This document shows positions 9,390 to 61,466 of a stretch of 64,000 nt of DNA, one piece after another (positions within the stretch are counted from its first letter, which is position 1; each line of letters opens with the position of its first letter). Position numbers and translations under genes: made by a program. This DNA is from an uncultured Thermodesulfobacteriota bacterium (GTDB lineage Bacteria > Desulfobacterota > Anaeroferrophillalia > Anaeroferrophillales > Tharpellaceae). Under the pieces are notes generated by a model. The model worked only from the letters and a program-made list of their open reading frames with translations, did not search any database and was not told the origin of the DNA. The stretch lies in the NCBI GenBank assembly GCA_964457755.1, contig CAYWGC010000002.1:80621-144620 (forward strand), written 5' to 3'.

Positions 9390-10424
<1,035 letters not shown>

Positions 10425-45677: not shown

Positions 45678-45799
45678 GCCTGATATAGACAAAAGGCACA
45701 AAAAAACCGTCTCGCTGTTGGTTCAGGATACTAAAGGGTTAAAATTTGTAACTATTCAGCCAACCTACCGTAAAGTTGGGCTTCAGACTGCCTCGATGC

Positions 45800-45956
45800 G
45801 GGGATACCCCAAGGGCACTTCCTCACTTCGTTCGGGCGCAGCCTCCAGACCGGGCTTTCACCCTAAAGGGCACAAGAGCCCGTGGCGGGCTGAGCCGCGC
45901 TGTGAGCGAAGCGAGGAAGTACTCTTGGGGTGTGTCCCCCTCGAAGTGGGCGAAGC
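45800..45956. repeat. Two inverted copies of the ~45-bp dispersed repeat unit (arms 45800-45843 and 45904-45956) separated by ~60 bp; a hairpin-capable MITE/REP-like element
   Basis: The arms are reverse complements of each other, and both match the unit at 24921-24965. Confidence 0.7.
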
Positions 45957-46014
45957 AAAATTCGACGCCTTTTTTAGTAGCTTTATGCGAAGACTGAATA
46001 GTTACATTGTTTTT

Positions 46015-46503: not shown

Positions 46504-46607
46504 GATTTTCTCCTGGTTGAAGTATTGTAAGAATCAATTATATTGAAAAATCAGATTACAGGATATTATGATTGTCCATCGCTTGTCAAGAACTTAGACT
46601 ATTATAT

Positions 46608-46647
46608 CACAAAAAGGCCATCGTAAAAGATATTTTACGATGGCCTT
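46608..46647 (-). terminator. Rho-independent terminator (stem AAGGCCATCGTAAAA / TTTTACGATGGCCTT, U-run on the minus strand) downstream of the RR-PP2C gene
   Basis: Read directly from the sequence. Confidence 0.7.
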
Positions 46648-46700
46648 GATATTTATTGAACTCAGTTATTATTTGATTTCAATTTATTTTTACGCCGCCA

Positions 46701-47897
46701 TCAAGGTTTGATCTCGAGGGCCAGTATAGAAACATCATCGCCACAGCCTAATCCTACAGTCCAGAGGTCAACCTCTTTAGTGATTATCTCGAGACTTTCA
46801 TTGAGAGAGAAAGATCTCGAGTTGTTAAGTTTTTCGGTTAGGCGCTCAACCCCGTATTGTTCTCTCTTTGGGTCCATCGCTTCGATAATACCGTCCGAAT
46901 AGAAATAGAGTCGGTCTCCCGGTTGTAAATCGAGGGTCTGTTCTTTGTAGACTTTGCCGACGCCAACCATAAAGCCGATCGGCATGCTGCGCACCTGAAT
47001 CGCCTGGCTGCTGCCATCGACTTTGACATGGATCATCGGCGGGTGACCTGCCGAAATGAAGGTCAATGTTCCCGATTTAACATTTAATTGGCCGTATTGG
47101 ATGGTGAAGTACTGTTCTGTGCTGCTGTCTAAGGGGAAGCGTTGATTGAGGCGGTCGGCAACCTCTTCGGGGCGGACAAGATGGTATCTCTGGGTGCCGG
47201 GGATCTGTTCTTTCAAGAGATCAGATTGTCCCGGGTTGGGATTGATAATCCGGGAGAGGTTGACTGAGAGCAGGGCCGCGGGTACCCCATGACCACTGAC
47301 ATCAAGCAGATAGAGGCCAATATGATCCTCATCTAGATGAAACAGATTTAAAGTGTCACCGGCAAGTTCGTCGCAAGGGACATACTTCCAGGCAAAATTA
47401 ACGGTTTCGCATTCCGGTAATTTAGTGGGCAGCAGAGATTGCTGGATTTTGGCGGCCGCTTCAAGATCCCGGCGCATACGTTCGTTGATTTTTTCCAGTT
47501 CCTGGTTGCGTTGGGCTAGATCTCGTTCAAGGTCGGTTATGCGAAGGCCAACCTTGAGTCGGGCCAGAAGTTCGTCTTTGTCAAAGGGTTTTGTGATAAA
47601 ATCGTCAGCTCCCGAATCCATGCCCGCCAGGATATCCTCTTTTTCGGTGCGGGCTGTCAATAATATGGTGTAGACATAGCCGGGTCGTTCACTTGAGCGG
47701 ATGCGCCGTAAGAGCTCAAGGCCATCCATCTCCGGCATCATCCAGTCGCTGATGACCATCGGAAAATGCTCTTTCTGGAAAAGTTCCCAAGCCTCTTTGC
47801 CATTTTCGGCAGAGGTAACTTCATAGCCCCACTTTTTCAGGCGACTTTCCAAAAGGCGTCGTGACACCCTCTCATCTTCAGCAATCAGAATTTTCAT
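46701..47897 (-). CDS. Response regulator receiver fused to a PP2C/SpoIIE-type serine phosphatase (RsbU-like)
   Basis: REC domain (MKILIAEDERVSRRLL…DWMMPEMDG…) and a PP2C domain (…DVSGHGVPAALLS…, …LYFYSDG…). Confidence 0.85.
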   Translation of the reverse strand: MKILIAEDERVSRRLLESRLKKWGYEVTSAENGKEAWELFQKEHFPMVISDWMMPEMDGLELLRRIRSSERPGYVYTILLTARTEKEDILAGMDSGADDFITKPFDKDELLARLKVGLRITDLERDLAQRNQELEKINERMRRDLEAAAKIQQSLLPTKLPECETVNFAWKYVPCDELAGDTLNLFHLDEDHIGLYLLDVSGHGVPAALLSVNLSRIINPNPGQSDLLKEQIPGTQRYHLVRPEEVADRLNQRFPLDSSTEQYFTIQYGQLNVKSGTLTFISAGHPPMIHVKVDGSSQAIQVRSMPIGFMVGVGKVYKEQTLDLQPGDRLYFYSDGIIEAMDPKREQYGVERLTEKLNNSRSFSLNESLEIITKEVDLWTVGLGCGDDVSILALEIKP

Positions 47898-47908
47898 TTT
47901 TTCCTGTG

Positions 47909-49249
47909 TTAAAAGTAATAACGGCCCATGGGGGTTAATTCAAATTCGTTTACAGTCAGGTATTCCTGTTCTCTGCGGTTGATAAATTTTATGGTTTTTC
48001 CTTTAAAATTTAGACGTCCTTCTTTGAGTAGTCGATAACCTTCATTGCGGCAGCGTTGGCAGGCATCGATCGGGATTTCAATACCCATGCAGGATGAGTT
48101 GCGTTGTGTTTTGGAAGTCAGATGGCGCACTCCGGAGCAACTTGTGCAGACCATTATCTGTTCAAGTTGCTGGTCGCTGATACCGTCGGTATCGTAATAG
48201 ACCGCTTTGGAACGGGTGTCGTATTGGTTTGGTTTGACATTTAAAGGGGGAGGTTTAAGATAGTTCTGCATGGTTTGCGCGCAAAGTTTTTTGATGTACT
48301 CGGTGATTTGAGGGCTTTGGCGCAGGCTTTCAGGATCATAGTCCGGTTCACGTACCTGACTGTAGTCAAGACCGGCCATCGCCAGCACAATCCCGAGGTT
48401 GACATAGGGCAGAGCTCCCTGAATTGAGTAGCCCCCCTCTAAAACGGCAATATCCGGGTTGAGTTTTTCATTGAGGCGGGCGTAGCCCTGGGCCGAAAAG
48501 TTCATATTAGTGATGGGGTCGCCATAATGGTTGTCCTGGCCCGCCGAGTTAATGATCAGATCAGGTTTAAAATCATCAAGAATCGGCTGCACCAGATTAT
48601 CTATGACATGAAGAAAACCTTCATCTGAGGTGTTGGGGGGCAGGGGGATATTGATAGTTCGACCTCGGGCTGTCGGGCCGCCAAGTTCATCACTGAAACC
48701 GGTGCCAGGATAGAGGGTGCGGCCATCCTGGTGCAGGGATATAAAGAGAATATTGGGATCGTGCCAATAGATATCCTGGGTGCCGTCGCCGTGGTGGCAG
48801 TCGGTGTCAACGATGGCGATTTTTTTATTGCCGTAGTTCTCACGAATAAATTCTATCAAGATAGCTTCATTGTTGATATTACAAAACCCCCGATTGCCGT
48901 GAACCACCTTCATGGCGTGGTGGCCGGGAGGGCGAACTAAGGCAAAGGCTTTGTCGACCTGTTTTTCCATGACCAGGCGGGCTGCTTTAATGGCTCCGCC
49001 GGCGGCAACCAAGTGGGATTCGGTACTGACCTCCTGGGGGCCGGGAAAACAGAAGTGAGTTCTTTCGATATCGGCATAGGTGGCAATTTCGGGTTTATAT
49101 TCAGTGATATTTGGAAGATCAAAAACCCCCTCTTCTCGAAGTTGATCCTGAGTATAGAGAAGACGTTCTTCACGTTCCGGGTGGGTCGGACTGATGGCCC
49201 AGTCATAAGCCGGGAAAAAGATGACGCCAAGATGGGTAGAGGTTTTCAT
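47909..49249 (-). CDS. Histone deacetylase-family (arginase/deacetylase fold; AcuC/acetoin-utilisation-like) protein with a C-terminal Cys-rich zinc-ribbon extension
   Basis: HDAC motifs (…RPPGHHA…, …DCHHGDGTQDI…, …GGY…) and a C-terminal CTSCSG…CQRC. Start moved to the internal ATG that abuts the upstream gene's stop. Confidence 0.75.
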   Translation of the reverse strand: MKTSTHLGVIFFPAYDWAISPTHPEREERLLYTQDQLREEGVFDLPNITEYKPEIATYADIERTHFCFPGPQEVSTESHLVAAGGAIKAARLVMEKQVDKAFALVRPPGHHAMKVVHGNRGFCNINNEAILIEFIRENYGNKKIAIVDTDCHHGDGTQDIYWHDPNILFISLHQDGRTLYPGTGFSDELGGPTARGRTINIPLPPNTSDEGFLHVIDNLVQPILDDFKPDLIINSAGQDNHYGDPITNMNFSAQGYARLNEKLNPDIAVLEGGYSIQGALPYVNLGIVLAMAGLDYSQVREPDYDPESLRQSPQITEYIKKLCAQTMQNYLKPPPLNVKPNQYDTRSKAVYYDTDGISDQQLEQIMVCTSCSGVRHLTSKTQRNSSCMGIEIPIDACQRCRNEGYRLLKEGRLNFKGKTIKFINRREQEYLTVNEFELTPMGRYYF

Positions 49250-49250
49250 A

Positions 49251-50933
49251 TTATTTAATTCCTTGAAGATAGTTTGTTTCAAGACCGGGTCTGATTTGGC
49301 AGCTTACGCGGATAGTTTTACTGCCGACCGCGTAATCGTCGACCATGTTAAAGGCCTCGGCCTCTACCACGGAAACGTCTCTATTCAGGATTTCGGGATG
49401 CCCGTTTTCTTTAAGGTGCTGGGTCAGTGCGTTGACGCCATCCTCTTTAGCCTGGTTCAATGAATAAGAGCTGCTGACTTCCTGTTTTATGTCGAGATTA
49501 GGAATAAGCATGACTTTTTTACCGGTATCGGCAAAGAGTTCAATCTCCATAGTCGTTCGGGTCAAAGCTGCCCCGATGGCATTGGCAACCGCAAAATTTT
49601 CCGGGACTTCAGTCTTAAGGTTGAAGACCTGTCCCAGGTTCTGAGCTAAAATTGCTGCGGGCCCGCCCATAATATAGATTTTTTGCGGGTCGATTTTTTG
49701 ACCATGAACAACCTCTTCGACCGTATAGACAGGTCTTTGATTGATCGCTTCCAAAAGTTTGTTGGTTTCTTTATGAATAGTTTTCATAGTCAGTTCAAGA
49801 ACCCTGTCGGCTAATTCGACAACCTTCATCTGGTTTTTTTCGGCAAGGATTTGGAGGCCGGCAAATGATTTTTTACTATTGCCAAGATCGCATAATTTTT
49901 TAACATTACAGGCATCAATCAAAGTTGCTTGTGAACCGCCCAGAGCCAGCGGCGGGCCTAAACGTTTGGGTCCGACCATTATTTTAGCGTTCTTGCCAAT
50001 AGTAATTGCCGAATCGCCGCCAATGCCGATGGAATGCGTGTCGATCGCCCGTACTGAAGTTGCCCGCCCGCCAAAACTAACCCCCTCTTTTTCAAGCAGG
50101 GGAGCGCCATTAGCAAAAATGGCGATGTCCGTGGTGGTGCCGCCGATATCAAGAATGATGGCATCTTCTGTGATTGAACTCAAAGCGATAATCCCCATGA
50201 CGCTGGCCGCCGGCCCCGAAAGAATGGTCTGGATCGGGTTGTTGCGGGAATTTTTGAAGTCGATGGTGCCGCCGTCGGCTTTTAAAATATTTACAGGTGC
50301 GTTCAGGTTATGCTTTTTGAGGCTTTGCGTGATCGCGTCGGCAAAAGTGTTGAAATGCCGCCAAACTGCGGCATTGTAGTAAGCGGTTGCCAGACGTCTG
50401 GGAAAATTGAGGCGGCCGGAAAGGCGATGGCCGATGGCGATAAAGTCGGCCTGTGTGGTGACGAGGTCGGCTAGGGTCTGTTCAATCTCGGGGTTGCGAA
50501 TTGAGAATTTACTGACAACCGCAAAAACTTTGAGTTGCTTTTTTTGGCAGTCGGCAACCGCGTTGTTTGCGGAAAATTCATCTAATTTAAGTTGTAGGGT
50601 GCCGCGATGGTCGATTGAGCCTGCGAGAAGGTAAAAGTTATGGCCGAGGTCACTACTGAAATAGTAAGGCGCCAGGCCCGGGCCGGAGACGGCGAGAACT
50701 CCGACCTCCTCAAGCTCGTTTTCAACAATGGCATTGGTCGTCAGGGTCGTACTCAGATTAATCTTGCTGATGGGTCGAGTTAGGTGGGAGCTTAAGATTC
50801 TTTCTAAAACCGCATCCAGAGAGCCGATCAAATCATTATGGTCAGTCTCGACTTTAGCGGTTGCTACGACCCCTTTATGATCAATAATAACTGCATCCGT
50901 ATGGGTGCCGCCAACATCTATTCCCAATAACAT
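49251..50933 (-). CDS. Hydantoinase/oxoprolinase (HyuA-like, ASKHA superfamily) family protein
   Basis: N-terminal …LGIDVGGTHTDAV… and a second …DIGGTTTD… sugar-kinase/Hsp70/actin-fold phosphate loop; 560 aa. Confidence 0.7.
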   Translation of the reverse strand: MLLGIDVGGTHTDAVIIDHKGVVATAKVETDHNDLIGSLDAVLERILSSHLTRPISKINLSTTLTTNAIVENELEEVGVLAVSGPGLAPYYFSSDLGHNFYLLAGSIDHRGTLQLKLDEFSANNAVADCQKKQLKVFAVVSKFSIRNPEIEQTLADLVTTQADFIAIGHRLSGRLNFPRRLATAYYNAAVWRHFNTFADAITQSLKKHNLNAPVNILKADGGTIDFKNSRNNPIQTILSGPAASVMGIIALSSITEDAIILDIGGTTTDIAIFANGAPLLEKEGVSFGGRATSVRAIDTHSIGIGGDSAITIGKNAKIMVGPKRLGPPLALGGSQATLIDACNVKKLCDLGNSKKSFAGLQILAEKNQMKVVELADRVLELTMKTIHKETNKLLEAINQRPVYTVEEVVHGQKIDPQKIYIMGGPAAILAQNLGQVFNLKTEVPENFAVANAIGAALTRTTMEIELFADTGKKVMLIPNLDIKQEVSSSYSLNQAKEDGVNALTQHLKENGHPEILNRDVSVVEAEAFNMVDDYAVGSKTIRVSCQIRPGLETNYLQGIK

Positions 50934-51152
50934 AATTTTGTCCCGATTCGTTCAATAATAGATAGATTTAATGGGAATTGCATAGCACAAACCCATGACT
51001 TGCGTCCAGTTTAATGTAGAGATTTTAAGATTTTTTGAGAGGGGACTGATTTTAAATCGGTTCCCTTTTTTTGTGGTCTATTGTAAAATGTATATGGCAT
51101 ACACAGAGTTCGCCGTTAGCGGCACAAATATTTTGACAACACAGTAAGATTA

Positions 51153-52196
51153 ATGAGCAAAAATCAGAGAGTAGTCTTAGGTTTTAGTGGCGGGGTTGAT
51201 AGTGCAGCGGCCGCTATTTTACTGCAGCGCCAAGGATACCAAGTAGTTCCGGTCGTCCTTGATATGGGTGGGGCAGATACTTCATTTCTGTTGCAGAGGG
51301 CTGCAAAGATGGCAAAGCATCTTGGGTTAGATTTGCTGGTTGAGTCGGCAGCCGATACTTTTGCCCAGGAAGTGATTGAATATCTGCTTTTTGCCTATAC
51401 TCATGCGCAAACCCCGAATCCCTGTATTCGCTGTAATGCTCGGGTTAAATTTGCCCGGTTGGCGGCGGTGGCCGACCGTCTAGGAATTGAAAAAATGGCT
51501 ACCGGGCACTATTTTAAAAAACTTTCCGGAGTTTCAGACAGCCCGGAAATTTCCTACCATAAAGCTTATGACAAGCGTAAAAATCAGAGTTATTTTCTCT
51601 TTGCAGTGCCGGAATTGTTATTGCGGCGCACTCTTTTTCCATTGGGTGGAATGAGTAAGAGTGAGGCCCTGATTTTGGCAGATGCAGCGGGTTATGAACT
51701 TGATAATTATCGTGAGAGCCAGGAGCTCTGTTTTCTCAACGGCGAAAAATATCAAGAGTATCTGGCCCGGCGGGGAGTGATGGGTGGTCACGGTGAGATT
51801 GTCAATTGTCAGGGGCGTGTAATGGGTAAGCATAACGGTCTGCAAAACTACACGATTGGCCAACGCCGCGGTATGGGGATTGCGCATCCTGAACCCCTCT
51901 ATGTTCTGAAACTTGATTATCCACATAACCGTTTACTGGTTGGTGAGCGGGATGAGGCCTATGGTTGCAATCTAAAAGTGGATAAAATCAACTGGCTGAT
52001 TGAACCACCATCTCAACCTCTTAATATTGAGTGCCAAATTCGTTATCGCCACCAACCAGCCCCGGCTCTTCTGACTCCGCTTTCCGATGGCCGGTTCGAG
52101 ATTGAATTCGAGTCTCCTCAGTTTGCCATAACTCCGGGCCAAGGAGCTGCTTTTTATAATGGAGAGCAGCTGTTAGGCGGTGGTATTATCATATGA
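51153..52196 (+). CDS. mnmA: tRNA-specific 2-thiouridylase
   Basis: PP-loop SGGxDS (…GFSGGVDSAAAA…), catalytic Cys residues, C-terminal beta-barrel. Confidence 0.93.
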   Translation: MSKNQRVVLGFSGGVDSAAAAILLQRQGYQVVPVVLDMGGADTSFLLQRAAKMAKHLGLDLLVESAADTFAQEVIEYLLFAYTHAQTPNPCIRCNARVKFARLAAVADRLGIEKMATGHYFKKLSGVSDSPEISYHKAYDKRKNQSYFLFAVPELLLRRTLFPLGGMSKSEALILADAAGYELDNYRESQELCFLNGEKYQEYLARRGVMGGHGEIVNCQGRVMGKHNGLQNYTIGQRRGMGIAHPEPLYVLKLDYPHNRLLVGERDEAYGCNLKVDKINWLIEPPSQPLNIECQIRYRHQPAPALLTPLSDGRFEIEFESPQFAITPGQGAAFYNGEQLLGGGIII

Positions 52197-52219
52197 GTCG
52201 TGATTATATGGAGGTTGAG

Positions 52220-54340
52220 ATGAAGAAAATAATCACTTCGGTTTTATGGATCATAATTACTCTCCTTTGTTATAGTGAAGCCAACGCTTTCATCGTTGAT
52301 CATCAATGTACGGATAGTAGCAAAATTCCTGTTGCATGGTTGCAGGCAGCCAGAAACAATCTGCGCATGGGCTATTCTCATACATCTCATGGCAGTCAGT
52401 TGATCAGCGGCATAAACGCATTTCGTGGTAGTGAAGGTTCGAGATATTATTTCACCAGTTCCGGTTGGGGGGCCGTAAGCGGAGTTTTTATAAATGATTA
52501 CTGGGCGAATGATGGGGCCGGAGACCTTGGTCATAATGGTGACTTGAGTTGGGTGACTGCAACTGAAACCATGCTTGATAATCCTGCCAATGACCGGAAT
52601 GTGGTGATGTGGTCATGGTGTGGCGGCGTTAGCGATAACACTGCAAGCGGTATCGATATATACTTAAATGCCATGAACCGCCTTGAACAACTCTATCCTC
52701 AGGTTTCTTTCATCTACATGACCGGTCATCTGGATGGCGGTGGAGTGGTGGGTAATTTGCATCAGATGAATGAGCGCATTCGCAATTACTGCCAAGATCA
52801 CAATAAGATACTTTTTGATTTTGCCGACATTGAAAGTTATGATCCCGATGGTGCAATCAACTATATGCAACTTAATGCCAATGATAATTGTGATTATAAC
52901 AGTAATGGCAACAATCGAAATTGGGCCCGTGAATGGCTTTCTGCTAATCCGGCCAGCACCTTGGCAGTGGAGGCCGAGAGTTGTGGGGGCTGCGCTCATT
53001 CACAATATTTAAACTGCGTTCTTAAAGGCCGGGCCTTTTGGTGGATGATGGCCCGTATTGCCGGTTGGGAGCCTGGCATTCCAGATCCTCCGGTTACGCT
53101 CTCAAAACTCTATTACCCGCATGTGGTCAGTGGGGATGGAGTTTGGGGAACCGAGATATGCGTACTCAATCCCAATAGTAATCAGACAGTTAATGGGATT
53201 TTTAAGGCCTTCGCTAATGACGGCCGAGCGGTTTCTGACAATCTAATTTTAAGCCTTGCTCCGCAGGCTCGTCGAGTAATAAACATCGCCACGCAATTTA
53301 GAGACCCTCAAAGTATTGGCTATATTGTTCTAGAAAGTGATTCCGAGAATCTTACCGGATATATGAAATTTTTTATCAACGGAGTCTGTCGGGTTGCCAT
53401 ACCCGTGGTCTCTCAGCTTAATTCAGGAGCTGTACCAATCTCTCATATTGCTTCAGATCAGTACTGGTGGACCGGTATAAGTTTGCTTAATACGACACTA
53501 TCGGAAAAAATATTGTCCATATATTTCAATAATGGAGTGCTGAAAAACGTAACACTCAGTGCTGGAGAACATCGGGCTTTTTCGATAAAAAGTCTGTTTG
53601 ATAACACTCCTCAAGCAGATATCAATTCTGCGATAATAGAGGGCATGACCGGAGTCATTGGTTTGGAACTTTTCAGCAATTCTAACCAGTTAAGCGGCAT
53701 ATTGTTAAGTGATAAGAGCTCTACTGAAATCTGTTACCCTCATGTCGTCGATGACCTGCAGTGGTGGACGGGGATTGTGGCATACAATCCATTTGATATG
53801 GAATCTATTTTGACAATTTCACCCTTTACTGGAGACGGTTCACCATTACCGCTTAAGACGGCAACACTTTTACCATTTTCAAAGTACTGGGGGTCTGTGA
53901 GTTCGCTTGCTTTAGCGTCGGAAACTGCCTGGTTTAAGGTTGAAAGCACCACTGGGATTTCCGGCTTTGAGCTTTTTGGCAGCAATGATAGTCAGCGTCT
54001 GGCCGGCTACTCCGGGGTTGCGATCAGTGGAACTGACGGCGTTTTGGCTAATCTTGAAGAAGATGGTTGGTCAGGTATCGCATTGGTCAATATCAGAGCA
54101 ACCTCGGTAACCGTTCAACTTAAAGCATATGATGATTCTGGCGCTCTTATTGCGACTAAATCAATAGATCTCAAAGCTTACGAGAAAAAAGTGGAAGTTG
54201 CCTCCACATTTTTCAGCACCAGTATCGCCGGCGCCACTTACATTACCTACACCGTGGAAGGTGATGGTGAATTGGTTGCTTTCCAGCTCAACAATAGCAG
54301 TGACAACACCATGCTTGATGCCTTACCAGCTATCAGATAG
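52220..54340 (+). CDS. Large secreted hypothetical protein: ~240-aa N-terminal domain of unknown function followed by several ~100-aa repeats with the conserved motif …[YN]PH[VI]…W(W)TG[IV]…N…
   Basis: Signal peptide (MKKIITSVLWIIITLLCYSEANA) after a GGAGG RBS. Internal repeats seen directly (YPHVVSGDGVWGTEICVLNP… / YPHVVDDLQWWTGIVAYNP… / YWWTGISLLN…). It is paralogous to the ORF at 59135. Confidence 0.5.
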   Translation: MKKIITSVLWIIITLLCYSEANAFIVDHQCTDSSKIPVAWLQAARNNLRMGYSHTSHGSQLISGINAFRGSEGSRYYFTSSGWGAVSGVFINDYWANDGAGDLGHNGDLSWVTATETMLDNPANDRNVVMWSWCGGVSDNTASGIDIYLNAMNRLEQLYPQVSFIYMTGHLDGGGVVGNLHQMNERIRNYCQDHNKILFDFADIESYDPDGAINYMQLNANDNCDYNSNGNNRNWAREWLSANPASTLAVEAESCGGCAHSQYLNCVLKGRAFWWMMARIAGWEPGIPDPPVTLSKLYYPHVVSGDGVWGTEICVLNPNSNQTVNGIFKAFANDGRAVSDNLILSLAPQARRVINIATQFRDPQSIGYIVLESDSENLTGYMKFFINGVCRVAIPVVSQLNSGAVPISHIASDQYWWTGISLLNTTLSEKILSIYFNNGVLKNVTLSAGEHRAFSIKSLFDNTPQADINSAIIEGMTGVIGLELFSNSNQLSGILLSDKSSTEICYPHVVDDLQWWTGIVAYNPFDMESILTISPFTGDGSPLPLKTATLLPFSKYWGSVSSLALASETAWFKVESTTGISGFELFGSNDSQRLAGYSGVAISGTDGVLANLEEDGWSGIALVNIRATSVTVQLKAYDDSGALIATKSIDLKAYEKKVEVASTFFSTSIAGATYITYTVEGDGELVAFQLNNSSDNTMLDALPAIR

Positions 54341-54493
54341 TGCTATGAGAAAACCCACACAAGGGAATTTGCTTAATTGTTTAATTTACTGGGTGCAATA
54401 AAAAATAATTAAAAAGAATATTTTCATTGCTTTAGAATGTTAAAAGAATTTATATGAATATAAATGAATAACAGATGGCGGGGAGGTTTCCAG

Positions 54494-54754
54494 ATGTCAA
54501 AAGTAGTGACCCTTAGACTTTCAGATGAAGAATATAATCTCTATGCAAAAGCCGCTAAAGTTGTCAAACGGCCGATATCCAACCTGATTAACTACCTGGC
54601 ACAACAACAGCTTGAAGAGAGTATTTTTATTGACCAGATAGAGATGGATGAGATTATTGGGAACCCAACTTTGCTTGAATCCCTGAAACAGGGTTCCATC
54701 GATGCAGAACTCAATCAAGGATCGTTTGTTGATGTATATGATATTCGAGACTAA
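54494..54754 (+). CDS. Type II antitoxin (ribbon-helix-helix/RelB-DinJ-like)
   Basis: 86-aa protein, N-terminal …VVTLRLSDEEYNLYAKAAK… RHH-like. Its stop overlaps the downstream RelE/ParE-like toxin. GGGGAGG RBS. Confidence 0.6.
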   Translation: MSKVVTLRLSDEEYNLYAKAAKVVKRPISNLINYLAQQQLEESIFIDQIEMDEIIGNPTLLESLKQGSIDAELNQGSFVDVYDIRD

Positions 54755-55004
54755 AACTTTTTTGAAGTCGCTTGAGCAAGTTTTTGGTGGACAACAGGGA
54801 AAAATTAAAAAGAAACTCCGGGGATATGTTTACCAGCAACTAAAAATCTCACCGGCGTTTGGCTCTAATATTAAAAAGCTCCGAGATTGGGATCCTCCCA
54901 CTTGGAGATACAGAATAAGCTCTTACCGATTCTTTTATCAAATTGATGAAAATCAGAAAATTGTCTCTATGATCCTGGCTGAACATCGTGGTAAGGCTTA
55001 TTAA
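54732..55004 (+). CDS. RelE/ParE-family type II toxin (mRNA interferase-like)
   Basis: ~90 aa; C-terminal …YRISSYRFFYQIDENQKIVSMILAEHRGKAY is typical of RelE/ParE. Its start overlaps the antitoxin's last codons. Confidence 0.7.
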   Translation: MYMIFETKTFLKSLEQVFGGQQGKIKKKLRGYVYQQLKISPAFGSNIKKLRDWDPPTWRYRISSYRFFYQIDENQKIVSMILAEHRGKAY

Positions 55005-55069
55005 GGCATAATGGTTGATTTGACACCGACCCCAATTCTACTCACTATGACAAACGAAAGGGAAAATGA

Positions 55070-55231
55070 ATGACTAATGGTAAAAACAACGGAGCGAACC
55101 TTGGCTTCGAAAACAAATTATGGGGAATGACCGACAAAATACGCGGTCATATGGACGCTGACGAATTGCGTGTTCTCAGTGTTGAGAAGTTGGTTGACGG
55201 ATTAAACCTTAATGGGGTTCACAATGGCTAG
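55070..55231 (+). pseudogene. hsdM: 5' remnant of a type I restriction-modification methyltransferase gene (hsdM N-terminal ~30 codons, then divergent sequence and a stop)
   Basis: MTNGKNNGANLGFENKLWGMTDKIRGHMDA… matches the widely conserved HsdM N-terminus (…LGFE.KLW.AADKLRG.MDA.EYK…). Homology is lost after ~aa 30, and the ORF stops at codon 54, overlapping the ATPase start. Confidence 0.6.
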
Positions 55232-56219
55232 AGCTGACTTGCTAACCGCTCTCGTCAAATTTGGAATGGCTGACGACAAGATCCGGTTCCAAAAAGTTGT
55301 CGAGTCGATCATCGCAGAAGAGCGAGCGAAGAAACACACAGTGTTGGCCGAGAAGCTGGAAGATCTGTTGCGCTCGATTCCTGTAGCGAAACCAGTTTCT
55401 AACGGAACCGCCATATTGGATCATCGGGTCAGTAATTTCGTCCGAGAAGTGATACCAGAGCGGAAACTCGACGATCTTATATTGCCATCGGAAGTACTTG
55501 AGATAGTGCGGGAAGTTGTTCAAGAGTACCATCGAATTGACCTGCTTCGATCATACAATTTGGAACCTCGCAATCGAGTACTGCTCATCGGTCCACCAGG
55601 AAACGGTAAGACGTCTCTGGCTGAAGCCATTGCTGAATCGTTGATGGTACCGTTACTTGTCGTTCGGTACGATGGTGTGGTGGGCACCTACCTTGGTGAA
55701 ACTGCCGTTCGTTTGCGAAGGTTGATGGAATATGCCGCCACACGGAAATGTGTTCTGTTCCTTGATGAGTTTGAGACGTTAGGCAAGGAGCGGGGCGACA
55801 CTCACGAAACCGGGGAAATAAAACGAGTCGTCAGTTCCTTGCTTCTACAGATTGACTCGCTGCCCAGCCACGTGGTCGTGGTTGGAGCCACCAATCACGC
55901 AGAGCTTCTCGACCGGGCTGTCTGGCGACGGTTTCAAGTTCGTATGGTTTTGCCCGAACCGACTCGTGCGAGACTGGCCGATTGGTTTGCAAGGTTTGAA
56001 CGTAGGATCAATGTGCCACTGGGATATGCACCAGAGACATTAGCGAAGAAGCTCCAAGGTGTGAATTTTGCCGAAGCTGAGGAATTCGGGGCGAGTGTGT
56101 TTCGCAAGTACGTACTCGAACAACCTGATTCAGACATGAAATCGATTGTTAATCGTACGTTGAAGACCTGGTCAGCACGTTCGGCCAAAACGAAACAGCA
56201 AAACGGGGGCAAAGACTAA
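55212..56219 (+). CDS. Classical AAA-family ATPase (single AAA domain, short N-terminal helical region); first gene of a two-gene ATPase-peptidase operon
   Basis: Walker A LLIGPPGNGKTSLAEAIA, Walker B VLFLDEFETL, sensor-1 …VVVGATNHAELLD…, Arg-finger region …AVWRRFQ…. Alternative start at ATG 55224. Its stop overlaps the next gene's start (TAATG). Confidence 0.85.
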   Translation: MGFTMARADLLTALVKFGMADDKIRFQKVVESIIAEERAKKHTVLAEKLEDLLRSIPVAKPVSNGTAILDHRVSNFVREVIPERKLDDLILPSEVLEIVREVVQEYHRIDLLRSYNLEPRNRVLLIGPPGNGKTSLAEAIAESLMVPLLVVRYDGVVGTYLGETAVRLRRLMEYAATRKCVLFLDEFETLGKERGDTHETGEIKRVVSSLLLQIDSLPSHVVVVGATNHAELLDRAVWRRFQVRMVLPEPTRARLADWFARFERRINVPLGYAPETLAKKLQGVNFAEAEEFGASVFRKYVLEQPDSDMKSIVNRTLKTWSARSAKTKQQNGGKD

Positions 56220-58798
56220 TGCCGGTTCGACCATTATTGCTATTTCCCGCTCCCGAACTTGCAGAAAAGGGTAATTTGCCCCAAGGTTTTAGACGGACTC
56301 ATAAACCTTCGCATGGCAGGCAAGGAGAGAGGGTGTCTCCCATCTTCGCTCAACTTCAGGCGGCATTCGATGCGCGGCAAGTCGAACTACAGAAAACGGC
56401 TGCCGGTGTAGAGCCAGAACAGGTTTTGGTGATTGAAACCATCGGTAACATCGAGGATTTTGCCAATGCTGTTCGTCGGATTGAAGGGCTTGAATGGATG
56501 GGGGAAATTGAAGTTGAGGAGATTACACCGGATGAGGATTTCTATGACGAGAAAAAACCGGAAAAAGAATTAAGTGGTCGTCTCTATCTGGTCATGACAA
56601 ATCAGCAGGCATTGCGAGAACTGCTTTCATTGTGGAATCGCTATAAAAATGATGAGAACATGACCTTTGATCGTGGCTTTGCCAAGTTTCGCGACGTGTT
56701 TCTCTGCCTTAATGATATTCGGCGTTGGGATGTGCAAGACCGCCTCGCTGAAACCGGTGTGTTGGATGTTTGGCGTGAGGATATGGAGCATTTTCCCGAT
56801 CAGCCGGTTCGAGGTGAAATCGAACTGTGGTTTCGCAATTCTGAAAGCAAGCGGCAAGACGCGGAGCTTCAGCTCACTTTATTGATTGAGGTGCTTGGTG
56901 GAAGAGTTTTGAGCCAATGTGTTCTTAGCGATATTGCCTATCACTCGATCTTGGCCGAATTGCCGAGGCAAGTTGCACAACAGGTGATGGATCACTCGAG
57001 TGTAGAGTTGGTCAAATGCGACAGCGTCATGTTCTTCAGGCCAGTAGGCCAAATGGCGACGGGCAAGTCACCGGTTGAAGGTGACCTGACGGATTTTGAA
57101 GTTTCTGAGGATCAAGAACGGCCATCCGGTGATCCGGTTGTTGCTATTTTTGACGGGCTTCCTTTGACCAATCACAGGTTGTTAGCAGATCGTTTAGTAA
57201 TCGATGATCCAGACGATTTCGCCTCGTATTACACTGTGGCCGATCGTGTGCATGGGACTGCAATGAGTTCGCTTGTCGTTCAAGGTGATTTAAGCAACGG
57301 GGAAAACCCGTTGGCTCGGCCTGTCTATGTTCGCCCGATCATGAAACCCATCGATTGGCATCGGTCTCCTCGTCCCGAGTATATCCCAGCAGATGTGCTT
57401 GTTGTTGATCTTATTCACCGCGCGGTTCGTCGCATGTACGAGGGTGATGGTGCGGGTGATGCGGCGGCGCCTGGCATTCGAATCATCAACCTGTCGATAG
57501 GCGACTCGAGCCGTCAATTTACGCAAGCCATGAGCCCCCTCGCACGACTCTTGGATTGGTTGAGTGTAAAATACAAGGTGCTCTTTGTCATCAGTGTGGG
57601 AAACTACCCTGATGACATTGACACCGGGATTTCGGTAGATGACTTTAATGATCTTGGCGATCAAGATCTCGAAGAGCTCAGTGTCAAGAAGCTATACGAG
57701 AACGCACGCCATCGGAGCCTACTCTCTCCCGCCGAGAGCATCAACGGCATCACGGTAGGTGCGCTGCACCGTGATGATTCTACTGTGAGCCATAGCGGAG
57801 ACACCATCAACCTGTTTGAAAATGCTCTTCCAAGTCCGGTGTCTGCATTTGGCAGCGGATACCGCCGCTCCGTAAAACCTGATTTAATCTGCCATGGTGG
57901 CCGAGTTTTTTACAATCGACCTATAGGCACGAATGCCAACGCCATTCTCAAATCCCGCCATCTTCGAATAGCGCCGGGCAACGAAGTTGCGTCACCGAGT
58001 AGCCATCCTGGCGACTTAAACAAGACTGCGTATTGTTGCGGAACCAGCAATTCGGCTGCGCTTATAAGTCGAGCGTTGTCTATTTGTCACGACTCGTTGT
58101 TGGATATATTCAATGAGCAAGCGCCTGACATTGAATTCACCACGTATATTGCCCCCTTGCTCAAGGCGATGATTGTACATGGATGTTCGTGGGATGATAT
58201 TGGGGAACGCCTTCAACAAATACTGCAAACTGCTGACAATGGTCGCCAAATCCGCAATTGGATAAGCAGATGGCTTGGGTATGGGGTTCCAGATTATTCG
58301 AGGGTTTTAGATTGTACGGAACAACGGACATCAATACTCGGGTTTGGGCAACTCAATGATGGAGAGGCCCATGTGTTTAGTCTGCCACTTCCGCCGTCAT
58401 TGGCCGCTCGACGTGACAGGCGTAGACTAACCGTGACATTGGCGTATTTGTCGCAAGTCGCCTCAAGCACCCAACGATATCGAATTGCCAACCTATGGTT
58501 CGAAATCGAAGGCGTTGCTTTGGCTTCCGGCAGACAAGATGCCGAGTGGCGTACAGTTAGACGTGGAACCGTTCAACATGAAGTATTTGAAGACGATAGA
58601 GCGGTCCCATTCAGCGACGGTGATACTTTGACAATTAAAGTCAACTGTCGAAAGGACGCACGTCGAATGGAAGAGCCGACTACTTATGGATTGGCAGTAT
58701 CACTCGAAGTAGCGGAGGGCATTGATATACCCATTTATAACGAGGTACGTACTCGAATAGCAACTGCTATTGAGATTCGAGCTAGAGAAGGGCTGTAG
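56219..58798 (+). CDS. Intracellular S8-family serine peptidase (subtilase) with an unrecognised ~300-aa N-terminal domain; second gene of the ATPase-peptidase operon
   Basis: Complete subtilase catalytic elements in order: Asp (…VVAIFDGLPLTNH…), His (…VHGTAMSSLVV…), oxyanion Asn (…IINLSIGDS…), Ser (…YCCGTSNSAALISRA…). No signal peptide; 859 aa. Confidence 0.85.
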   Translation: MPVRPLLLFPAPELAEKGNLPQGFRRTHKPSHGRQGERVSPIFAQLQAAFDARQVELQKTAAGVEPEQVLVIETIGNIEDFANAVRRIEGLEWMGEIEVEEITPDEDFYDEKKPEKELSGRLYLVMTNQQALRELLSLWNRYKNDENMTFDRGFAKFRDVFLCLNDIRRWDVQDRLAETGVLDVWREDMEHFPDQPVRGEIELWFRNSESKRQDAELQLTLLIEVLGGRVLSQCVLSDIAYHSILAELPRQVAQQVMDHSSVELVKCDSVMFFRPVGQMATGKSPVEGDLTDFEVSEDQERPSGDPVVAIFDGLPLTNHRLLADRLVIDDPDDFASYYTVADRVHGTAMSSLVVQGDLSNGENPLARPVYVRPIMKPIDWHRSPRPEYIPADVLVVDLIHRAVRRMYEGDGAGDAAAPGIRIINLSIGDSSRQFTQAMSPLARLLDWLSVKYKVLFVISVGNYPDDIDTGISVDDFNDLGDQDLEELSVKKLYENARHRSLLSPAESINGITVGALHRDDSTVSHSGDTINLFENALPSPVSAFGSGYRRSVKPDLICHGGRVFYNRPIGTNANAILKSRHLRIAPGNEVASPSSHPGDLNKTAYCCGTSNSAALISRALSICHDSLLDIFNEQAPDIEFTTYIAPLLKAMIVHGCSWDDIGERLQQILQTADNGRQIRNWISRWLGYGVPDYSRVLDCTEQRTSILGFGQLNDGEAHVFSLPLPPSLAARRDRRRLTVTLAYLSQVASSTQRYRIANLWFEIEGVALASGRQDAEWRTVRRGTVQHEVFEDDRAVPFSDGDTLTIKVNCRKDARRMEEPTTYGLAVSLEVAEGIDIPIYNEVRTRIATAIEIRAREGL

Positions 58799-59134
58799 AA
58801 ATGAACCATCTCAACGAAGCAAAAATATGACCATGGTGTGCTTTGAGAATTTCACTACATTGAATATGGATCGGACGTTGCTTTTGATGGCTCGAGCACA
58901 GAAAGTAATGCGGAAGCAGATTATATCGACATTGTTCTCATCGGATGCTCACCGAGAGCTCTGAACTTGTGCTCGAATAGGCGACGGTTGCTTTGTAAGG
59001 AATGTGCAGTAGAGTTAATGAAACCGCTCAACAAAGCGCTGTACTGATCGGTTGTTCCGCTACGCTCCATTGCCGTCAATGAGCCTGCTCGTTATTTACC
59101 CAACCAATGGCAAAGTTTACGCCGGATACAATAC

Positions 59135-59860
59135 ATGGGTGTTTGGGCAAATACTGGTTCTGCCCGAACTGGAACAGTGACGATAGGCGGTATTTTAAGT
59201 GATACATTTAAGGTGTCACAGGAAGCTGCACCTGGAACTTATAGCTATGAATATTTTTCACCATATTACTCTTCTTCAGAAGTTGACTGGACTGGTGTTG
59301 CCTTAAGTAATGCTAGTTATGATCATGAGGCTTCTATAGAGGTTGTAGTTCGTGGTATGAATGGAGACCTTTTAAGACAGATTTATAAAAATCTTCCAGC
59401 CAGTGGCAAAACAACTTTAGTAGTAGATGATTTAAGTTCCGGATGGTTGCATGTTAGATCAGATCAACCTTTGTCCGGCCTTGTCTTTCTAGGTCGTGGC
59501 CTGTATATGGCTGATATTCCTTTTGTTGACAATCTCGAACAAAATCTTGTTATCCCCCATATTGCTCAGGATGATGATTGGGATACGACTCTTATGATCT
59601 GTAACCCACAGACCAGCAGCGTTAATGTAAATGTAATAAATGTTAACGATCAAGGGCTAATAGTGGCTCTGAGAAACTTAACACTTGCGGCTAAAGGCAG
59701 CGGTTGTTTTCTGTTAAGTGATCTTTTTGGGTCTCAAGCTCTAACCGGTAAAATATATCTTCATGCAACTTCAGGAATATCTGCTTTTGCGCTTTATAAC
59801 AATGTGAAGAGCGGCGGCAGCTGGTTTGCCGGTATCAATGCTACACTATTAACTGATTAA
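59135..59860 (+). CDS. Repeat-domain protein fragment paralogous to the C-terminal repeats of the 52220..54340 protein; lacks a signal peptide (possibly 5'-truncated)
   Basis: …NLVIPHIAQDDDWDTTLMICNP… and …ISAFALYNN… align with …YPHVVDDLQWWTGIVAYNP… / …ISGFELFGSN… of the upstream paralogue. An in-frame stop lies at 59078. Confidence 0.45.
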   Translation: MGVWANTGSARTGTVTIGGILSDTFKVSQEAAPGTYSYEYFSPYYSSSEVDWTGVALSNASYDHEASIEVVVRGMNGDLLRQIYKNLPASGKTTLVVDDLSSGWLHVRSDQPLSGLVFLGRGLYMADIPFVDNLEQNLVIPHIAQDDDWDTTLMICNPQTSSVNVNVINVNDQGLIVALRNLTLAAKGSGCFLLSDLFGSQALTGKIYLHATSGISAFALYNNVKSGGSWFAGINATLLTD

Positions 59861-60113
59861 GTTAGAATTGCCGATGAATTGATTTTGAAGGTTATTTCTC
59901 CATTAAATTTTTTCAACGGCAGAATTCAATGGAGATTGACCTTCCCAGATTGAAATATTTTATGGTACTCTACAAAGAGTCCGGCAATATAGCCGGGCTC
60001 TTTGTCATTCAGATGCTTTTGGGAACAAAGTGAATAAAAGGTGATGCCCGATTAGCGTGAGCGAAAGCTTTCCTATGTGGTTAAAAAGGCATGGCGCCGG
60101 GCTGGAGTTGTAA

Positions 60114-61466
60114 ATGCAGAAAAAAAAATTACAACGTGTCAAGATCGAAACCCTAGGTTGTAAGGTGAATCATTATGAGAGTCAGGGGTTGGCTGCCGAG
60201 TTTCGTCGGCAGGGTTGGCAGGTTGTTAAAAAAGGGCCCTGTGAGGCGGTGGTTATTAATAGTTGTGCGGTTACCGCAGAAGCGGGACGGCAGAGTTTGC
60301 AAACCGCGAGAAGAGCCCTTAAACGTTATCCCGAGGCTCAGGTAGCTCTGGCGGGCTGTGCGGTGGTGGCTGAGCCTCAAAAGGCTGTAGAAGTTGAAAA
60401 ACTAGGGGCGGTTTTCGGCAATGCCGGGAAAAAAGATCTGGTCTCCAGATTAACCGGGCAACTCGAAGGAGAGGCCGTTGACTTAGCTGAGCAAATCGGC
60501 ATTTATGGTGAGCTTGCGGTTGATCTTTTGCGGGCCGATTTAGACCGAGGCCGGAGTCGGGCTGTAGTCAAGATTCAGGATGGTTGCAACTCTTTCTGTC
60601 GTTACTGTATTATTCCTTATCTGCGGGGTCGTTGTCGCAGTTTGCTGCCAGAAACAGTGTTGGCCGAATGTTGCGAATTGGTTGACGCAGGATTTCACGA
60701 GGTGGTTTTGACCGGCATTCATATCGGTCGTTATGGGGAAGATTTAGGGGGTGGTTTCAGCCTGACTTCGCTGCTTCTGCAGCTGGTTGCTGAATTTCCT
60801 GAACTGCGTCTGCGGCTTGGCTCCCTACAGCCGCATGAGATAACCCCGGAGATCATTTCACTATTGCTCGATCCGCAAGCTTCGGTCTGTGAACATCTGC
60901 ATCTCTCGTTGCAGTCGGCCAGTGACCGGGTTCTGGGGGCTATGGGACGCCCTTATCGGCGTCACGATATTGAAAATATCTTTACTTTGCTTGCCGCAGG
61001 TGCCGGACATTTGAATATCGGTACTGACCTGATTGTCGGGTTTCCGGCCGAAGATGAAAAGTCGTTTCAAGAAACTCTGGATCTGGTCAAAACGGTTGAA
61101 CTTGGTTATCTTCACGTCTTTCCCTATTCCCCTCGTCGGGGCACGGTGGCCGCCTCATGGCCGGATCGGATTCCGGCAAGCGAAAAAAAGGCGCGGGCCG
61201 CAGAGTTGGGGGCTTTGGGCCAAAGTAAGCGGGAGGCTTTTGCTGAAAAAAATCTGGGCTGTAATCTTAAAGTATTGCTCGAAAAAAAGGTCGAAGATAA
61301 ACGTTATGGGGAAGGTTGGTTTGGCCATAGTCGTAACTATCTGCCGGTACTGGTGACCAAACAAGCAGTTGATACTTGTTTGCAGATTGGATCACAGGTG
61401 ACGGTCCAGGCGCATACCTGGGATGGTCGTCGATTGATAGGCTCTTGGGAGAGATCCCGGTGTTAG
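60114..61466 (+). CDS. Radical-SAM methylthiotransferase of the MiaB/MtaB/RimO family (450 aa, MtaB-like)
   Basis: N-terminal MTTase domain Cys triad (…ETLGCKVNHYE…), radical-SAM CxxxCxxC (…CNSFCRYCIIP…), C-terminal TRAM-like region. Confidence 0.88.
   Translation: MQKKKLQRVKIETLGCKVNHYESQGLAAEFRRQGWQVVKKGPCEAVVINSCAVTAEAGRQSLQTARRALKRYPEAQVALAGCAVVAEPQKAVEVEKLGAVFGNAGKKDLVSRLTGQLEGEAVDLAEQIGIYGELAVDLLRADLDRGRSRAVVKIQDGCNSFCRYCIIPYLRGRCRSLLPETVLAECCELVDAGFHEVVLTGIHIGRYGEDLGGGFSLTSLLLQLVAEFPELRLRLGSLQPHEITPEIISLLLDPQASVCEHLHLSLQSASDRVLGAMGRPYRRHDIENIFTLLAAGAGHLNIGTDLIVGFPAEDEKSFQETLDLVKTVELGYLHVFPYSPRRGTVAASWPDRIPASEKKARAAELGALGQSKREAFAEKNLGCNLKVLLEKKVEDKRYGEGWFGHSRNYLPVLVTKQAVDTCLQIGSQVTVQAHTWDGRRLIGSWERSRC

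Follow-up and report, generated by a model that had tools for sequence, protein, structure and literature searches.

The conserved gene pair mnmA-mtaB, two housekeeping genes of tRNA modification, is interrupted in our window, the 64,000-nucleotide stretch of DNA analysed as a whole, by an accessory segment of 7.9 kb, which is very probably a patchwork that arose in several steps, has no recognisable recombinase and contains an IetAS block derived from a type I restriction-modification (R-M) operon. The parts from which the segment would have been put together are a gene for a secreted surface protein, a RelE/ParE toxin-antitoxin (TA) pair, a 3.8-kb block carrying the IetAS genes, 310 bp that could not be assigned, and the 3' two-thirds of a second surface-protein gene (Table 1). 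The order of events that we infer, together with the mode of transfer, is the following. In an ancestral type I R-M operon, ietA would have lain directly behind hsdS, with overlapping stop and start codons; an internal deletion would then have removed nearly all of hsdM and hsdS, leaving a 53-codon hsdM'-'hsdS scar ORF, and this deletion would have preceded the arrival of the block at mnmA|mtaB. The gene rep241 would have lost its 5' end by deletion, so that the 3' two-thirds of a BACON/beta-sandwich gene were left. The whole is a defence islet of the ordinary type and not a new kind of element.

Table 1. Features of the mnmA-mtaB region, with coordinates counted from the first letter of the window.
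Feature	Coordinates	Strand	Description
mnmA (tRNA 2-thiouridylase)	51153..52196	+	conserved left anchor of the site; Pfam tRNA_Me_trans, E 2.2e-46
Accessory segment, 7.9 kb	52197..60113		between mnmA and mtaB; missing from L056 and 11 other mnmA-mtaB loci
rep715, secreted modular surface-type protein	52220..54340	+	signal peptide, N-terminal domain of ~270 aa of no known function, four beta-sandwich repeats of ~110 aa
Putative antitoxin (RHH/RelB-like), type II TA	54464..54754	+	upstream of the toxin gene and overlapping it; matches that fall short of the cut-offs to Pfam DUF6290 (E 2e-4) and NCBIfam RelB_antitoxin (E 2.7e-3)
RelE/ParE-superfamily toxin	54732..55004	+	PHROG 1213 "RelE-like toxin", E 3.9e-12
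Transferable block, 3.8 kb	55049..58824	+	hsdM'-'hsdS scar, ietA, ietS and 26 nt
Chimeric scar ORF, 53 codons	55070..55231	+	in-frame fusion of hsdM codons 1 to ~32 with the ~21 terminal codons of hsdS
ietA, AAA+ ATPase, 331 aa	55224..56219	+	IetAS antitoxin/regulator by family; PADLOC IetA PDLC04232, E 2.5e-149, positions 1-326 of 330
ietS, S8 subtilisin-like serine protease, 859 aa	56219..58798	+	IetAS toxin/effector by family; PADLOC IetS PDLC04233, E 0, 1104 bits, positions 1-851 of 855
310 bp between ietAS block and rep241	58825..59134		no recognisable coding remnant
rep241, 5'-truncated BACON + two-beta-sandwich-repeat surface-protein gene	59135..59860	+	signal peptide, first BACON domain and the greater part of the second are missing
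mtaB-like radical-SAM methylthiotransferase	60114..61466	+	conserved right anchor; Pfam UPF0004 + Radical_SAM

The limits of the segment were set by comparison with relatives. The nearest syntenic one, L056, is colinear with positions 43194-52193 of the window (9 kb); its mnmA (8909-9946) is 58% identical to ours and is followed directly, after a gap of 55 nt, by an mtaB that is 63% identical. Including L056, mnmA lies 2-55 nt ahead of mtaB in 12 of the closest mtaB loci. Because the two genes directly adjoin each other in these relatives, all of 52197-60113 is accessory, both repeat-protein genes included, and the empty site in relatives is mnmA|mtaB, the two genes having nothing between them. 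The comparison set contains no sister genome above 90% identity, and the proteins of L056 are only 58-84% identical to those of the window, a distance at which the timing and number of insertions lie beyond the resolution of the comparison. A scan of genome contigs in which the 715-aa repeat protein served as the query returned non-syntenic orthologues only. Upstream of the closest relative of our mtaB, that of L055 (78% identical), we found a different TA pair and a fragment of an IS110-type transposase; L055 and the window share mtaB alone. The junction mnmA|mtaB therefore seems to be a variable site in this group, with hotspot behaviour seen at the single locus L055.

A preliminary description of this stretch had proposed, for a single island of ~4.8 kb (54341-59134), insertion into or expansion of a tandem array formed by two paralogous repeat genes native to the site, possibly with beheading of the second; we now consider this reading improbable. 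Every element on which it was built was confirmed, close to or exactly where it had been placed: the ORF of the 715-aa protein ends at 54340, on the left flank; a RelE-like toxin with its antitoxin (54464-55004) and an intact ATPase-S8 pair (55224-58798) lie inside; acquired modules differing in composition and distribution make up the interior as a mosaic; and the gene on the right flank has no signal peptide, aligns remotely with the repeats of the 715-aa protein and is truly truncated at its 5' end. The two genes do have a repeat domain in common, and in L003, a distant genome from Syntrophales, a paralogue of the repeat region stands in tandem behind a gene of the 715-aa type. An empty site was also found in relatives, as that description had expected, but it lies outside the repeat genes and not between them: where mnmA directly adjoins mtaB, neither repeat gene is present. 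Also against the array, the two genes are 28% identical over one repeat only (131 aa, E 3e-6) and have unlike architectures; the orthologues of rep715 in L001, L002 and L145 have no neighbouring repeat-protein paralogue; the interior consists of at least three separate modules, unlike in composition and distribution; and the part missing from the 5' end of rep241 is absent at the left junction, so that no simple split took place.

In the patchwork that we favour, the two surface-protein genes are separate components that have just a widespread beta-sandwich repeat in common. The listed ORF of rep715 (715 aa) starts at 52193 and its homology to orthologues at 52211, so the start is probably the ATG at 52220. 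No match to rep715 was found in Pfam, NCBIfam or PDB; its orthologues, 68-76% identical, lie in unrelated contexts, and its homologues show domain shuffling. The closest full-length homologue of rep241, P0122, is 415 aa long and 67% identical; it possesses both a signal peptide and a pair of BACON domains, and its alignment with the window begins at P0122 residue 169, which corresponds to position 59135; the missing BACON-coding part was searched for throughout the window and found nowhere else in it. The AF2 model of rep241 (mean pLDDT 81) predicts that the N-terminal 31 residues left are disordered (pLDDT <50) and that the rest is all-beta, with a fold match to TM1070 (PDB 1nc7, TMt 0.80).

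The ATPase-S8 pair is identified by profile and motif as an intact IetAS, a known toxin-antitoxin and abortive-infection system. IetA also matches Pfam AAA (E 2.1e-29) and carries Walker A (GPPGNGKT, from residue 123), Walker B (VLFLDE) and sensor-1 (GATN) motifs, while IetS matches Pfam Peptidase_S8 (E 3.9e-13) and has intact triad motifs: D312 (AIFDG), H345 (HGT), N462 and S610 (GTSNS). The co-oriented genes overlap by 1 nt, the ietA stop and the ietS start meeting at 56219, in an arrangement that is the same in all homologous loci; the homologues of IetA are 331 aa long, and the likely start of ietA is 55224. Compared with L138, L048, L052, L051 and L135, ietS is 89-97% identical at codon positions 1+2 and 67-82% at position 3, and this concentration of substitutions at the third position indicates purifying selection. 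The preliminary description had not recognised the pair as a known system.

The NCBIfam equivalog models IteA and IteS gave 221.6 bits (cut-off 510) and 76.2 bits (cut-off 900), respectively, and IetS is 31-39% identical to plasmid-borne relatives; this places the clade far from the IetAS systems tested by experiment, and the pair of the window represents a divergent subfamily and not an equivalog. Among the matches listed in a plasmid search there were distant relatives only, with ~67-71% nucleotide identity over the AAA core, and viral contigs, scanned for a phage that might carry this clade of IetS, gave nothing. The clade is widespread, with more than 2,000 database homologues, none of which has a solved structure, and a PDB sequence search with IetS gave nothing useful. 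Defence activity is what we infer from family membership: IetS would be a subtilisin-like protease toxin restrained by IetA, the AAA+ ATPase, until a phage protein frees or activates the protease, and the infected cell would arrest or die before the release of phage progeny, that is, by abortive infection. The pair might also stabilise the DNA that carries it. Gao and colleagues reportedly described IetAS in 2020 as an anti-phage abortive-infection system. IetAS was first described on pTiC58, where a protease acting as toxin and an ATPase acting as antitoxin form a TA system that stabilises the plasmid (PMC5006074; PMC13069673); it acts against phages via abortive infection, the trigger being a phage protein (bioRxiv 10.1101/2022.08.27.505566).

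The origin of the block can be read from the scar ORF, whose stop overlaps the ietA start (ATGGCTAG). Residues 9-36 of the scar match PADLOC MTase_I (E 6.3e-7), so that the hsdM remnant noted previously is present, but the scar holds hsdS as well. The scar of L138 is longer, by ~80 nt (..RMRDTLLPKRISVELRISAVEKLFDGLNINGVHNG*), and aligns with PADLOC Specificity_I profiles at their extreme C-terminal end (E 2.9e-5), the genuine HsdS of L051 ends in ..LRDTLLPKLMSGEIRIPDAEKMVEELVL, and the hsdS tail upstream of ietA is conserved in 7 contexts. This overlap of the hsdS stop with the ietA start argues that the IetAS clade of the window originated within a type I R-M operon. A complete system (hsdM, hsdS and hsdR) is not found here, and in no sampled context is ietA preceded by an intact hsdM-hsdS; in L051 a full hsdMSR lies downstream.

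Both ends of the block are shared, within 2 nt, by L048 and L138, and a nested shorter stretch, from 55184 to 58782..58803, is common to L052, L051 and L135. Nucleotide identity over the block is 83-91% (pairwise blastn) in at least six unrelated genomic contexts; in L048, L051, L052, L135 and L138 the neighbours are unrelated, for example rnc/fab genes, hsdMSR, BREX/WYL or HEPN-MNT. Together with the atypical composition and codon usage of the block, this speaks for its horizontal spread. It is conceivable, though rather unlikely, that hsdM'-'hsdS-ietA-ietS is a discrete 3.8-kb cassette with fixed ends, moving between unrelated chromosomal sites without repeats or a recombinase of its own, and that the scar mini-ORF, with the ribosome-binding site and start codon of hsdM and an hsdS stop overlapping the ietA start, is not a neutral remnant but is kept to drive translationally coupled expression of ietA.

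Since the same scar and the same outer ends occur in other genomes, the main hsd deletion probably predates the arrival of the block in this lineage. The opposite view, that the lineage once possessed, at this very site, a complete type I R-M operon in which ietAS was embedded, and that the scar formed locally, is very unlikely. The remnants of hsdM and hsdS do directly abut ietA, and the shorter scar of the window means that at least one deletion may be local; however, the hsdM'-'hsdS fusion and both outer ends are common to L138 and L048 in unrelated contexts, and no hsdR or further hsd homology was found elsewhere in the window. A misjoined metagenome contig, bridged by a block common to several community members, is hardly credible: the source, a long contig, does occur in metagenome-derived collections and other organisms carry relatives of the ietAS block with ~90% identity, but those relatives, at 83-91% identity, are too divergent for assembly collapse, the block junctions are unique sequence, and the expected syntenic partner mtaB resumes after the segment, as it would not after a chimeric join.

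Among the separately acquired parts of the patchwork, the RelE-like TA pair would probably be an addiction or stress module aiding the persistence of the islet. Residues 1-90 of the toxin align with positions 2-87 of the 88 in the PHROG 1213 profile, that is, over its full length, and its score against Pfam ParE_toxin is 22.7 bits, with a cut-off of 23; the gene likely starts at 54732 or 54738. In a PDB sequence search the best two matches of the toxin were RelE proteins, both non-significant, and the antitoxin, whose family we assign only tentatively, gave nothing useful. An AF2 model of the toxin from a single sequence had a pLDDT of 49.7 and was set aside.

No vehicle was recognised for any of these parts. 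Between 52197 and 60113 there is no recognised integrase or transposase ORF, no tRNA genes lie at the junctions, and direct or inverted repeats at all junctions are limited to short matches at chance level, in agreement with the earlier remark that att-like direct repeats are lacking. The segment thus shows none of the marks of an integrase-mediated island or an IS-bounded transposon (recombinase, att/attC, terminal inverted repeats, target-site duplication). The stretch 58825-59134 had no blastn or tblastx match to any compared locus; its six-frame fragments had no significant match to Pfam or PADLOC, and it had none to Rfam. An integron cassette was considered and rejected, as no attC-like site was present. 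In L048 and L143, Y1 transposase genes adjoin the block; mobilisation by an IS200/IS605 element was likewise rejected, because no element ends were found despite these neighbours.

The pair resembles the IetAS of Agrobacterium pTiC58 in being a two-gene operon with the ATPase first, the subtilase second and a 1-nt overlap, in its full-length PADLOC IetA/IetS matches, in its intact Walker A/B motifs and Asp-His-Ser triad, and in its location among other defence and TA genes. It differs in being chromosomal, in an uncultured lineage, and in belonging, by profiles and alignments, to a distant clade, with the scar of a type I R-M operon lying upstream. That defence genes can be embedded in operons of type I R-M systems is known, and in the accessible text of the two sources IetAS is not named among the embedded systems (PMC11411939; bioRxiv 10.1101/2024.01.29.577857). 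Like such genes (PrrC; TgvAB of V. cholerae VPI-2; "guilt-by-embedding" cassettes), ietA starts exactly at the hsdS stop and in the same orientation; unlike them, it stands with ietS alone, the R-M host having been cut down to the 53-codon scar. The small, overlapping antitoxin-toxin pair is similar to type II RelBE/ParDE systems, with a toxin that matches a RelE-like profile over its full length, whereas in Pfam and NCBIfam the scores stay below threshold, and the family of the antitoxin is tentative. As in defence islands and hotspots, variable cargo of atypical composition sits in a conserved gene pair, with a mix of defence and TA genes and remnants; in contrast to them, the islet is very small, lacks integrase, tRNA and att repeats, and carries surface-protein genes unrelated to defence.

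What our analysis adds is an IetAS on the chromosome of an uncultured lineage, from a clade that is both divergent and widespread, scars that point to the origin of this clade inside a type I R-M operon, and the documentation of mnmA|mtaB as a variable site. Current concepts are unchanged, as defence islets, embedded systems and TA-stabilised cargo are already established. The practical value lies in annotation (ietAS, the hsd scar and the truncated pseudogene) and in natural variants that form a clean set for work on the relocation of small defence cassettes.

The heterogeneous composition reported in the preliminary description was confirmed in most respects. The GC content is 36.8% in the TA part, below that of 96% of 400-bp windows, 49.7% in the ietAS part and 40.5% in rep241, whose GC3 of 0.278 is the minimum of the window; the block as a whole has 49.6%, compared with ~40% in the flanks of L048. 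By GC alone, the segment falls inside the spread shown by other genes of the window. Of the codons said to be frequent in the ATPase-S8 pair, GAC is not enriched relative to 26 core genes, but TCG (p 6e-5) and CGA (p 5e-3) are. In tetranucleotide distance, the block is the top outlier: positions 55001-59000 reach z = 3.0-3.9, the maximum of the window.

Pfam and PADLOC searches upheld the gene labels that the preliminary description had given to the region between mnmA and a mtaB-like gene, and made them more precise (see table). For the small toxin, PHROG 1213 ("RelE-like toxin") gives a full-length match (E 3.9e-12), and the putative antitoxin has only weak matches to DUF6290/RelB in Pfam and NCBIfam.

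Features of the region from mnmA to the mtaB-like gene (positions in the window)
Feature	Position	Strand	Remark
mnmA	51153-52196	+	
rep715, secreted repeat protein, 715 aa	start listed 52193, stop 54340	+	
putative antitoxin ORF, 96 codons	54464-54754	+	overlaps toxin ORF
toxin ORF, ~90 codons	end 55004	+	overlapped by antitoxin ORF
scar ORF, 53 codons	55070-55231	+	type I methyltransferase N-terminus match (E 6.3e-7)
ietA, AAA+ ATPase, 331/335 codons	end 56219	+	PADLOC IetA
ietS, S8 peptidase, 859 codons	56219-58798	+	PADLOC IetS
stretch without convincing ORF, 336 bp	between ietS and 59135		
rep241, repeat protein, 241 codons	59135-59860	+	
mtaB-like radical-SAM gene	60114-61466	+	

The ATPase matches the PADLOC IetA profile with an E-value of 2.5e-149 (positions 1-326 of 330), and the peptidase matches IetS with an E-value of 0 and 1104 bits (positions 1-851 of 855). 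IetA carries the Walker A (GPPGNGKT), Walker B (VLFLDE) and sensor-1 (GATN) motifs, IetS has subtilase motifs around D312, H345, N462 and S610, and both proteins are as long as their nearest relatives in the database (331 and 856-861 aa). Compared with five related loci, codon positions 1 and 2 are 89-97% identical and position 3 is 67-82% identical, a third-position-biased divergence which shows that purifying selection acts on ietAS. The pair is IetAS, intact and selectively maintained. Its scores, far under the NCBIfam IteA/IteS equivalog cut-offs, and the 31-39% identity of its IetS to plasmid-borne IetS proteins indicate that it belongs to a divergent clade; a PDB sequence search found no solved structure for IetS relatives. 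Two reports (PMC5006074; PMC13069673) describe IetAS as first found on Agrobacterium pTiC58, as a plasmid-stabilising toxin-antitoxin (TA) pair of protease toxin and ATPase antitoxin. It was later shown to be anti-phage, acting by abortive infection with a phage protein as trigger (bioRxiv 10.1101/2022.08.27.505566), and its molecular mechanism was still called unknown in 2026 (PMC13069673).

Metagenome contigs were scanned with the mtaB-like protein. One of them (L056), with proteins 58-84% identical, is colinear with window 43194-52193 and has mtaB 55 nt after mnmA, and in each of eleven further loci, with a more distant mtaB, mnmA lies 2-55 nt upstream. These loci indicate that the adjacency of mnmA and mtaB is ancestral for the wider group. 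Since 7.9 kb separates the pair in the window, positions 52197-60113 are accessory relative to L056 and the eleven loci. The repeat-protein genes, which had been regarded as native flanks, are both inside this segment. Misassembly of the contig is unlikely, because past the segment it resumes with the syntenic partner gene. The closest mtaB relative (78%) is on a short contig, L055, whose upstream part contains no mnmA and no sequence from the window; its positions 1-1380 carry a C-terminal fragment of an IS110-type transposase and a different TA pair (Unstab_antitox and a ParE-like toxin). This one contig suggests that the mnmA-mtaB site may be a hotspot. The accessory segment has no recognisable integrase or transposase ORF and encodes no mobility function; we conjecture that it came in through recombination following transfer, or as part of a larger element that has since eroded. 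On the other side of mtaB, synteny with L056 stops immediately (window 61487 onward versus L056 11320 onward), so that mtaB adjoins a second rearrangement boundary; the TPR and HD-GYP genes downstream of it have no counterpart in L056.

The block formed by the hsd scar and ietAS appears to be horizontally mobile. A database search gave IetS relatives with 79-92% protein identity, and on their contigs the ietA-ietS DNA is 83-91% identical to window 55184-58800, with quite different neighbours. These are an IS200/IS605 transposase gene upstream and rnc and fab genes downstream (L048/L049), a complete hsdM-hsdS-hsdR (L051), DUF5131 and other small genes (L052), umuDC-like, WYL and BREX genes (L135), and a HEPN/nucleotidyltransferase pair with a Fic fragment (L138). 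The GC content of the block in L048 is 49.6%, versus ~40% in the core-gene flanks. More distant ietAS relatives (67-73% nucleotide identity) have phage-like or methyltransferase genes and another Y1 transposase gene nearby. The ends of the block coincide within 2 nt in the window (55049-58824), L048 (8884-12606) and L138 (2751-6608), and the sequence beyond them differs; no terminal repeats, duplications, attC-like sites or recombinase were found at these ends in the three contexts. We see only a slim chance that such fixed ends reflect either a discrete cassette with an uncharted route of movement or selection to keep the scar ORF as a leader in the translation of ietA. Y1 (IS200/IS605) transposase genes adjoin the block in L048 and a more distant relative in L143.

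The 53-codon ORF in front of ietA had been called an hsdM remnant; the HsdM N-terminus is indeed present, but an hsdS tail accompanies it. Besides ietAS, the window has the start region of hsdM (55049-55164, 87% identity) in common with three loci (L138-L140), which carry ~80 nt more between the two. The scar of L138 translates as MTDEKNNGANLDFENKLWEMADKMRGYVNAAESKPVALGLVF*LARMRDTLLPKRISVELRISAVEKLFDGLNINGVHNG*, of which the first part is the HsdM N-terminus and the second matches type I specificity-subunit profiles of PADLOC at their extreme C-terminus (E 2.9e-5) and resembles the end of the genuine HsdS in L051 (..LRDTLLPKLMSGEIRIPDAEKMVEELVL). In the five closest contexts examined, the hsdS-tail frame closes with ..GVHNG* (in L048, GVQNG*), and the stop codon overlaps the start of ietA (ATGGCTAG); a mere trace of the tail is left in L141 and none in L143. 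The shared tail frame, the stop/start overlap and the profile matches together identify the window's ORF as an hsdM'-'hsdS fusion, in which codons 1 to ~32 of hsdM run on in frame into the final ~21 codons of hsdS. No further hsd homology was found elsewhere in the window. In the simplest history, ietAS of this clade would once have stood directly behind hsdS, on its downstream side, in a type I restriction-modification (R-M) operon, and a later internal deletion would have removed the bodies of hsdM and hsdS, leaving the scar. This presumed position resembles that of the defence genes embedded in type I R-M operons, whose role as hosts is well documented for other systems (PMC11411939; bioRxiv 10.1101/2024.01.29.577857). 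The same scar and block ends occur elsewhere, which contradicts decay in situ of a resident R-M operon.

Composition is uneven across the segment, as the preliminary description had proposed: the TA part has a GC content of 36.8%, the ietAS block 49.7% and the rep241 ORF 40.5% (400-bp windows: mean 46.2%, sd 4.3%). GC alone does not separate ietAS from core genes; tetranucleotide usage does set it apart, with the 2-kb windows in 55001-59000 at the top of the 64-kb window (z = 3.0-3.9). Codon choice in ietAS also differs, with TTG, TCG, CGA, GCG and ACG enriched; thus, of the codons singled out earlier, CGA and TCG stand, but GAC is not enriched. Searches for junction repeats, tRNA genes and RNA families found none, in agreement with the earlier remark that no repeats were obvious at the junctions. 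The window's sole other tetranucleotide outlier (z 2.35) holds a sigma-54-dependent activator gene (40889-42361; PAS, Sigma54_activat and HTH_8) of unusually low GC3 (0.32), preceded by a very AT-rich stretch (40400-41000). The lowest GC content among the window's genes (37.5%) is that of a 251-codon ORF at 27813-28565 on the minus strand, which has no Pfam match.

The rep715 protein consists of a signal peptide, a ~270-aa N-terminal domain (window 52220-53100) and four ~110-aa repeats. Homology to its orthologues (68-76%), which occur in unrelated contexts with no rep241 relative after them, begins at window 52211, so the true start is probably the ATG at 52220. The N-terminal domain and the repeats are each found in thousands of proteins from many phyla, joined to various surface-protein domains. 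More than 2,000 proteins homologous to the N-terminal domain, many at 45-65% identity, span Acidobacteriota, Chloroflexota, Planctomycetota, Desulfobacterota and other phyla, with fusions to PKD, Calx-beta, FG-GAP, T9SS-sorting and other surface modules. Widespread and apparently uncharacterised, this domain gave no match in Pfam, NCBIfam and PDB sequence searches.

The best full-length homologue of rep241 (P0122, 415 aa, 67% identity) combines a signal peptide with two BACON domains and then two repeats, and the alignment starts at its residue 169, exactly at window 59135, which bears out the suspected truncation. No BACON-coding remnant was found elsewhere in the window, which argues that the 5' end was deleted, not displaced; what is left is probably a pseudogene. 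In an AlphaFold model from six sequences (mean pLDDT 81) the fold is all-beta and the first 31 residues (the BACON stump) are unstructured, and each repeat resembles the TM1070 beta-sandwich of Thermotoga maritima (PDB 1nc7, TMt 0.80), the best solved match. This ~110-aa repeat, present at window 53100-54340 in rep715 and 59240-59860 in rep241, follows S8, papain-C1 or transglutaminase-like heads in other proteins. The repeats of the two genes do align, yet with only 28% identity over 131 residues (E 3e-6). To call the genes tandem paralogues was an overstatement, as this module is all that they have in common, and rep241 is the tail of a different architecture. A single island inserted into a paralogue array would account for the truncation of rep241, but the empty mnmA-mtaB site contradicts it, as does the way the repeat genes are distributed.

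We infer instead that the segment was built stepwise, through several independent gains and losses of DNA at a permissive intergenic site. Both the TA pair and the TA-like IetAS would favour the keeping of the DNA that carries them, and IetAS may provide abortive-infection defence. Taken as a whole, the finding is a small and ordinary defence/TA islet, with a known system from a divergent clade and an informative evolutionary scar.

The sole real tandem arrangement seen was in a Syntrophales genome (L003 10007-13448), where the gene immediately after a rep715 homologue is a paralogue of the repeat region alone (50% identity). The repeat family has several members in the host genome, since the 248,434-bp source contig also encodes a 661-aa protein (P0183) with the same module (46% identity) and a PF19202 domain.
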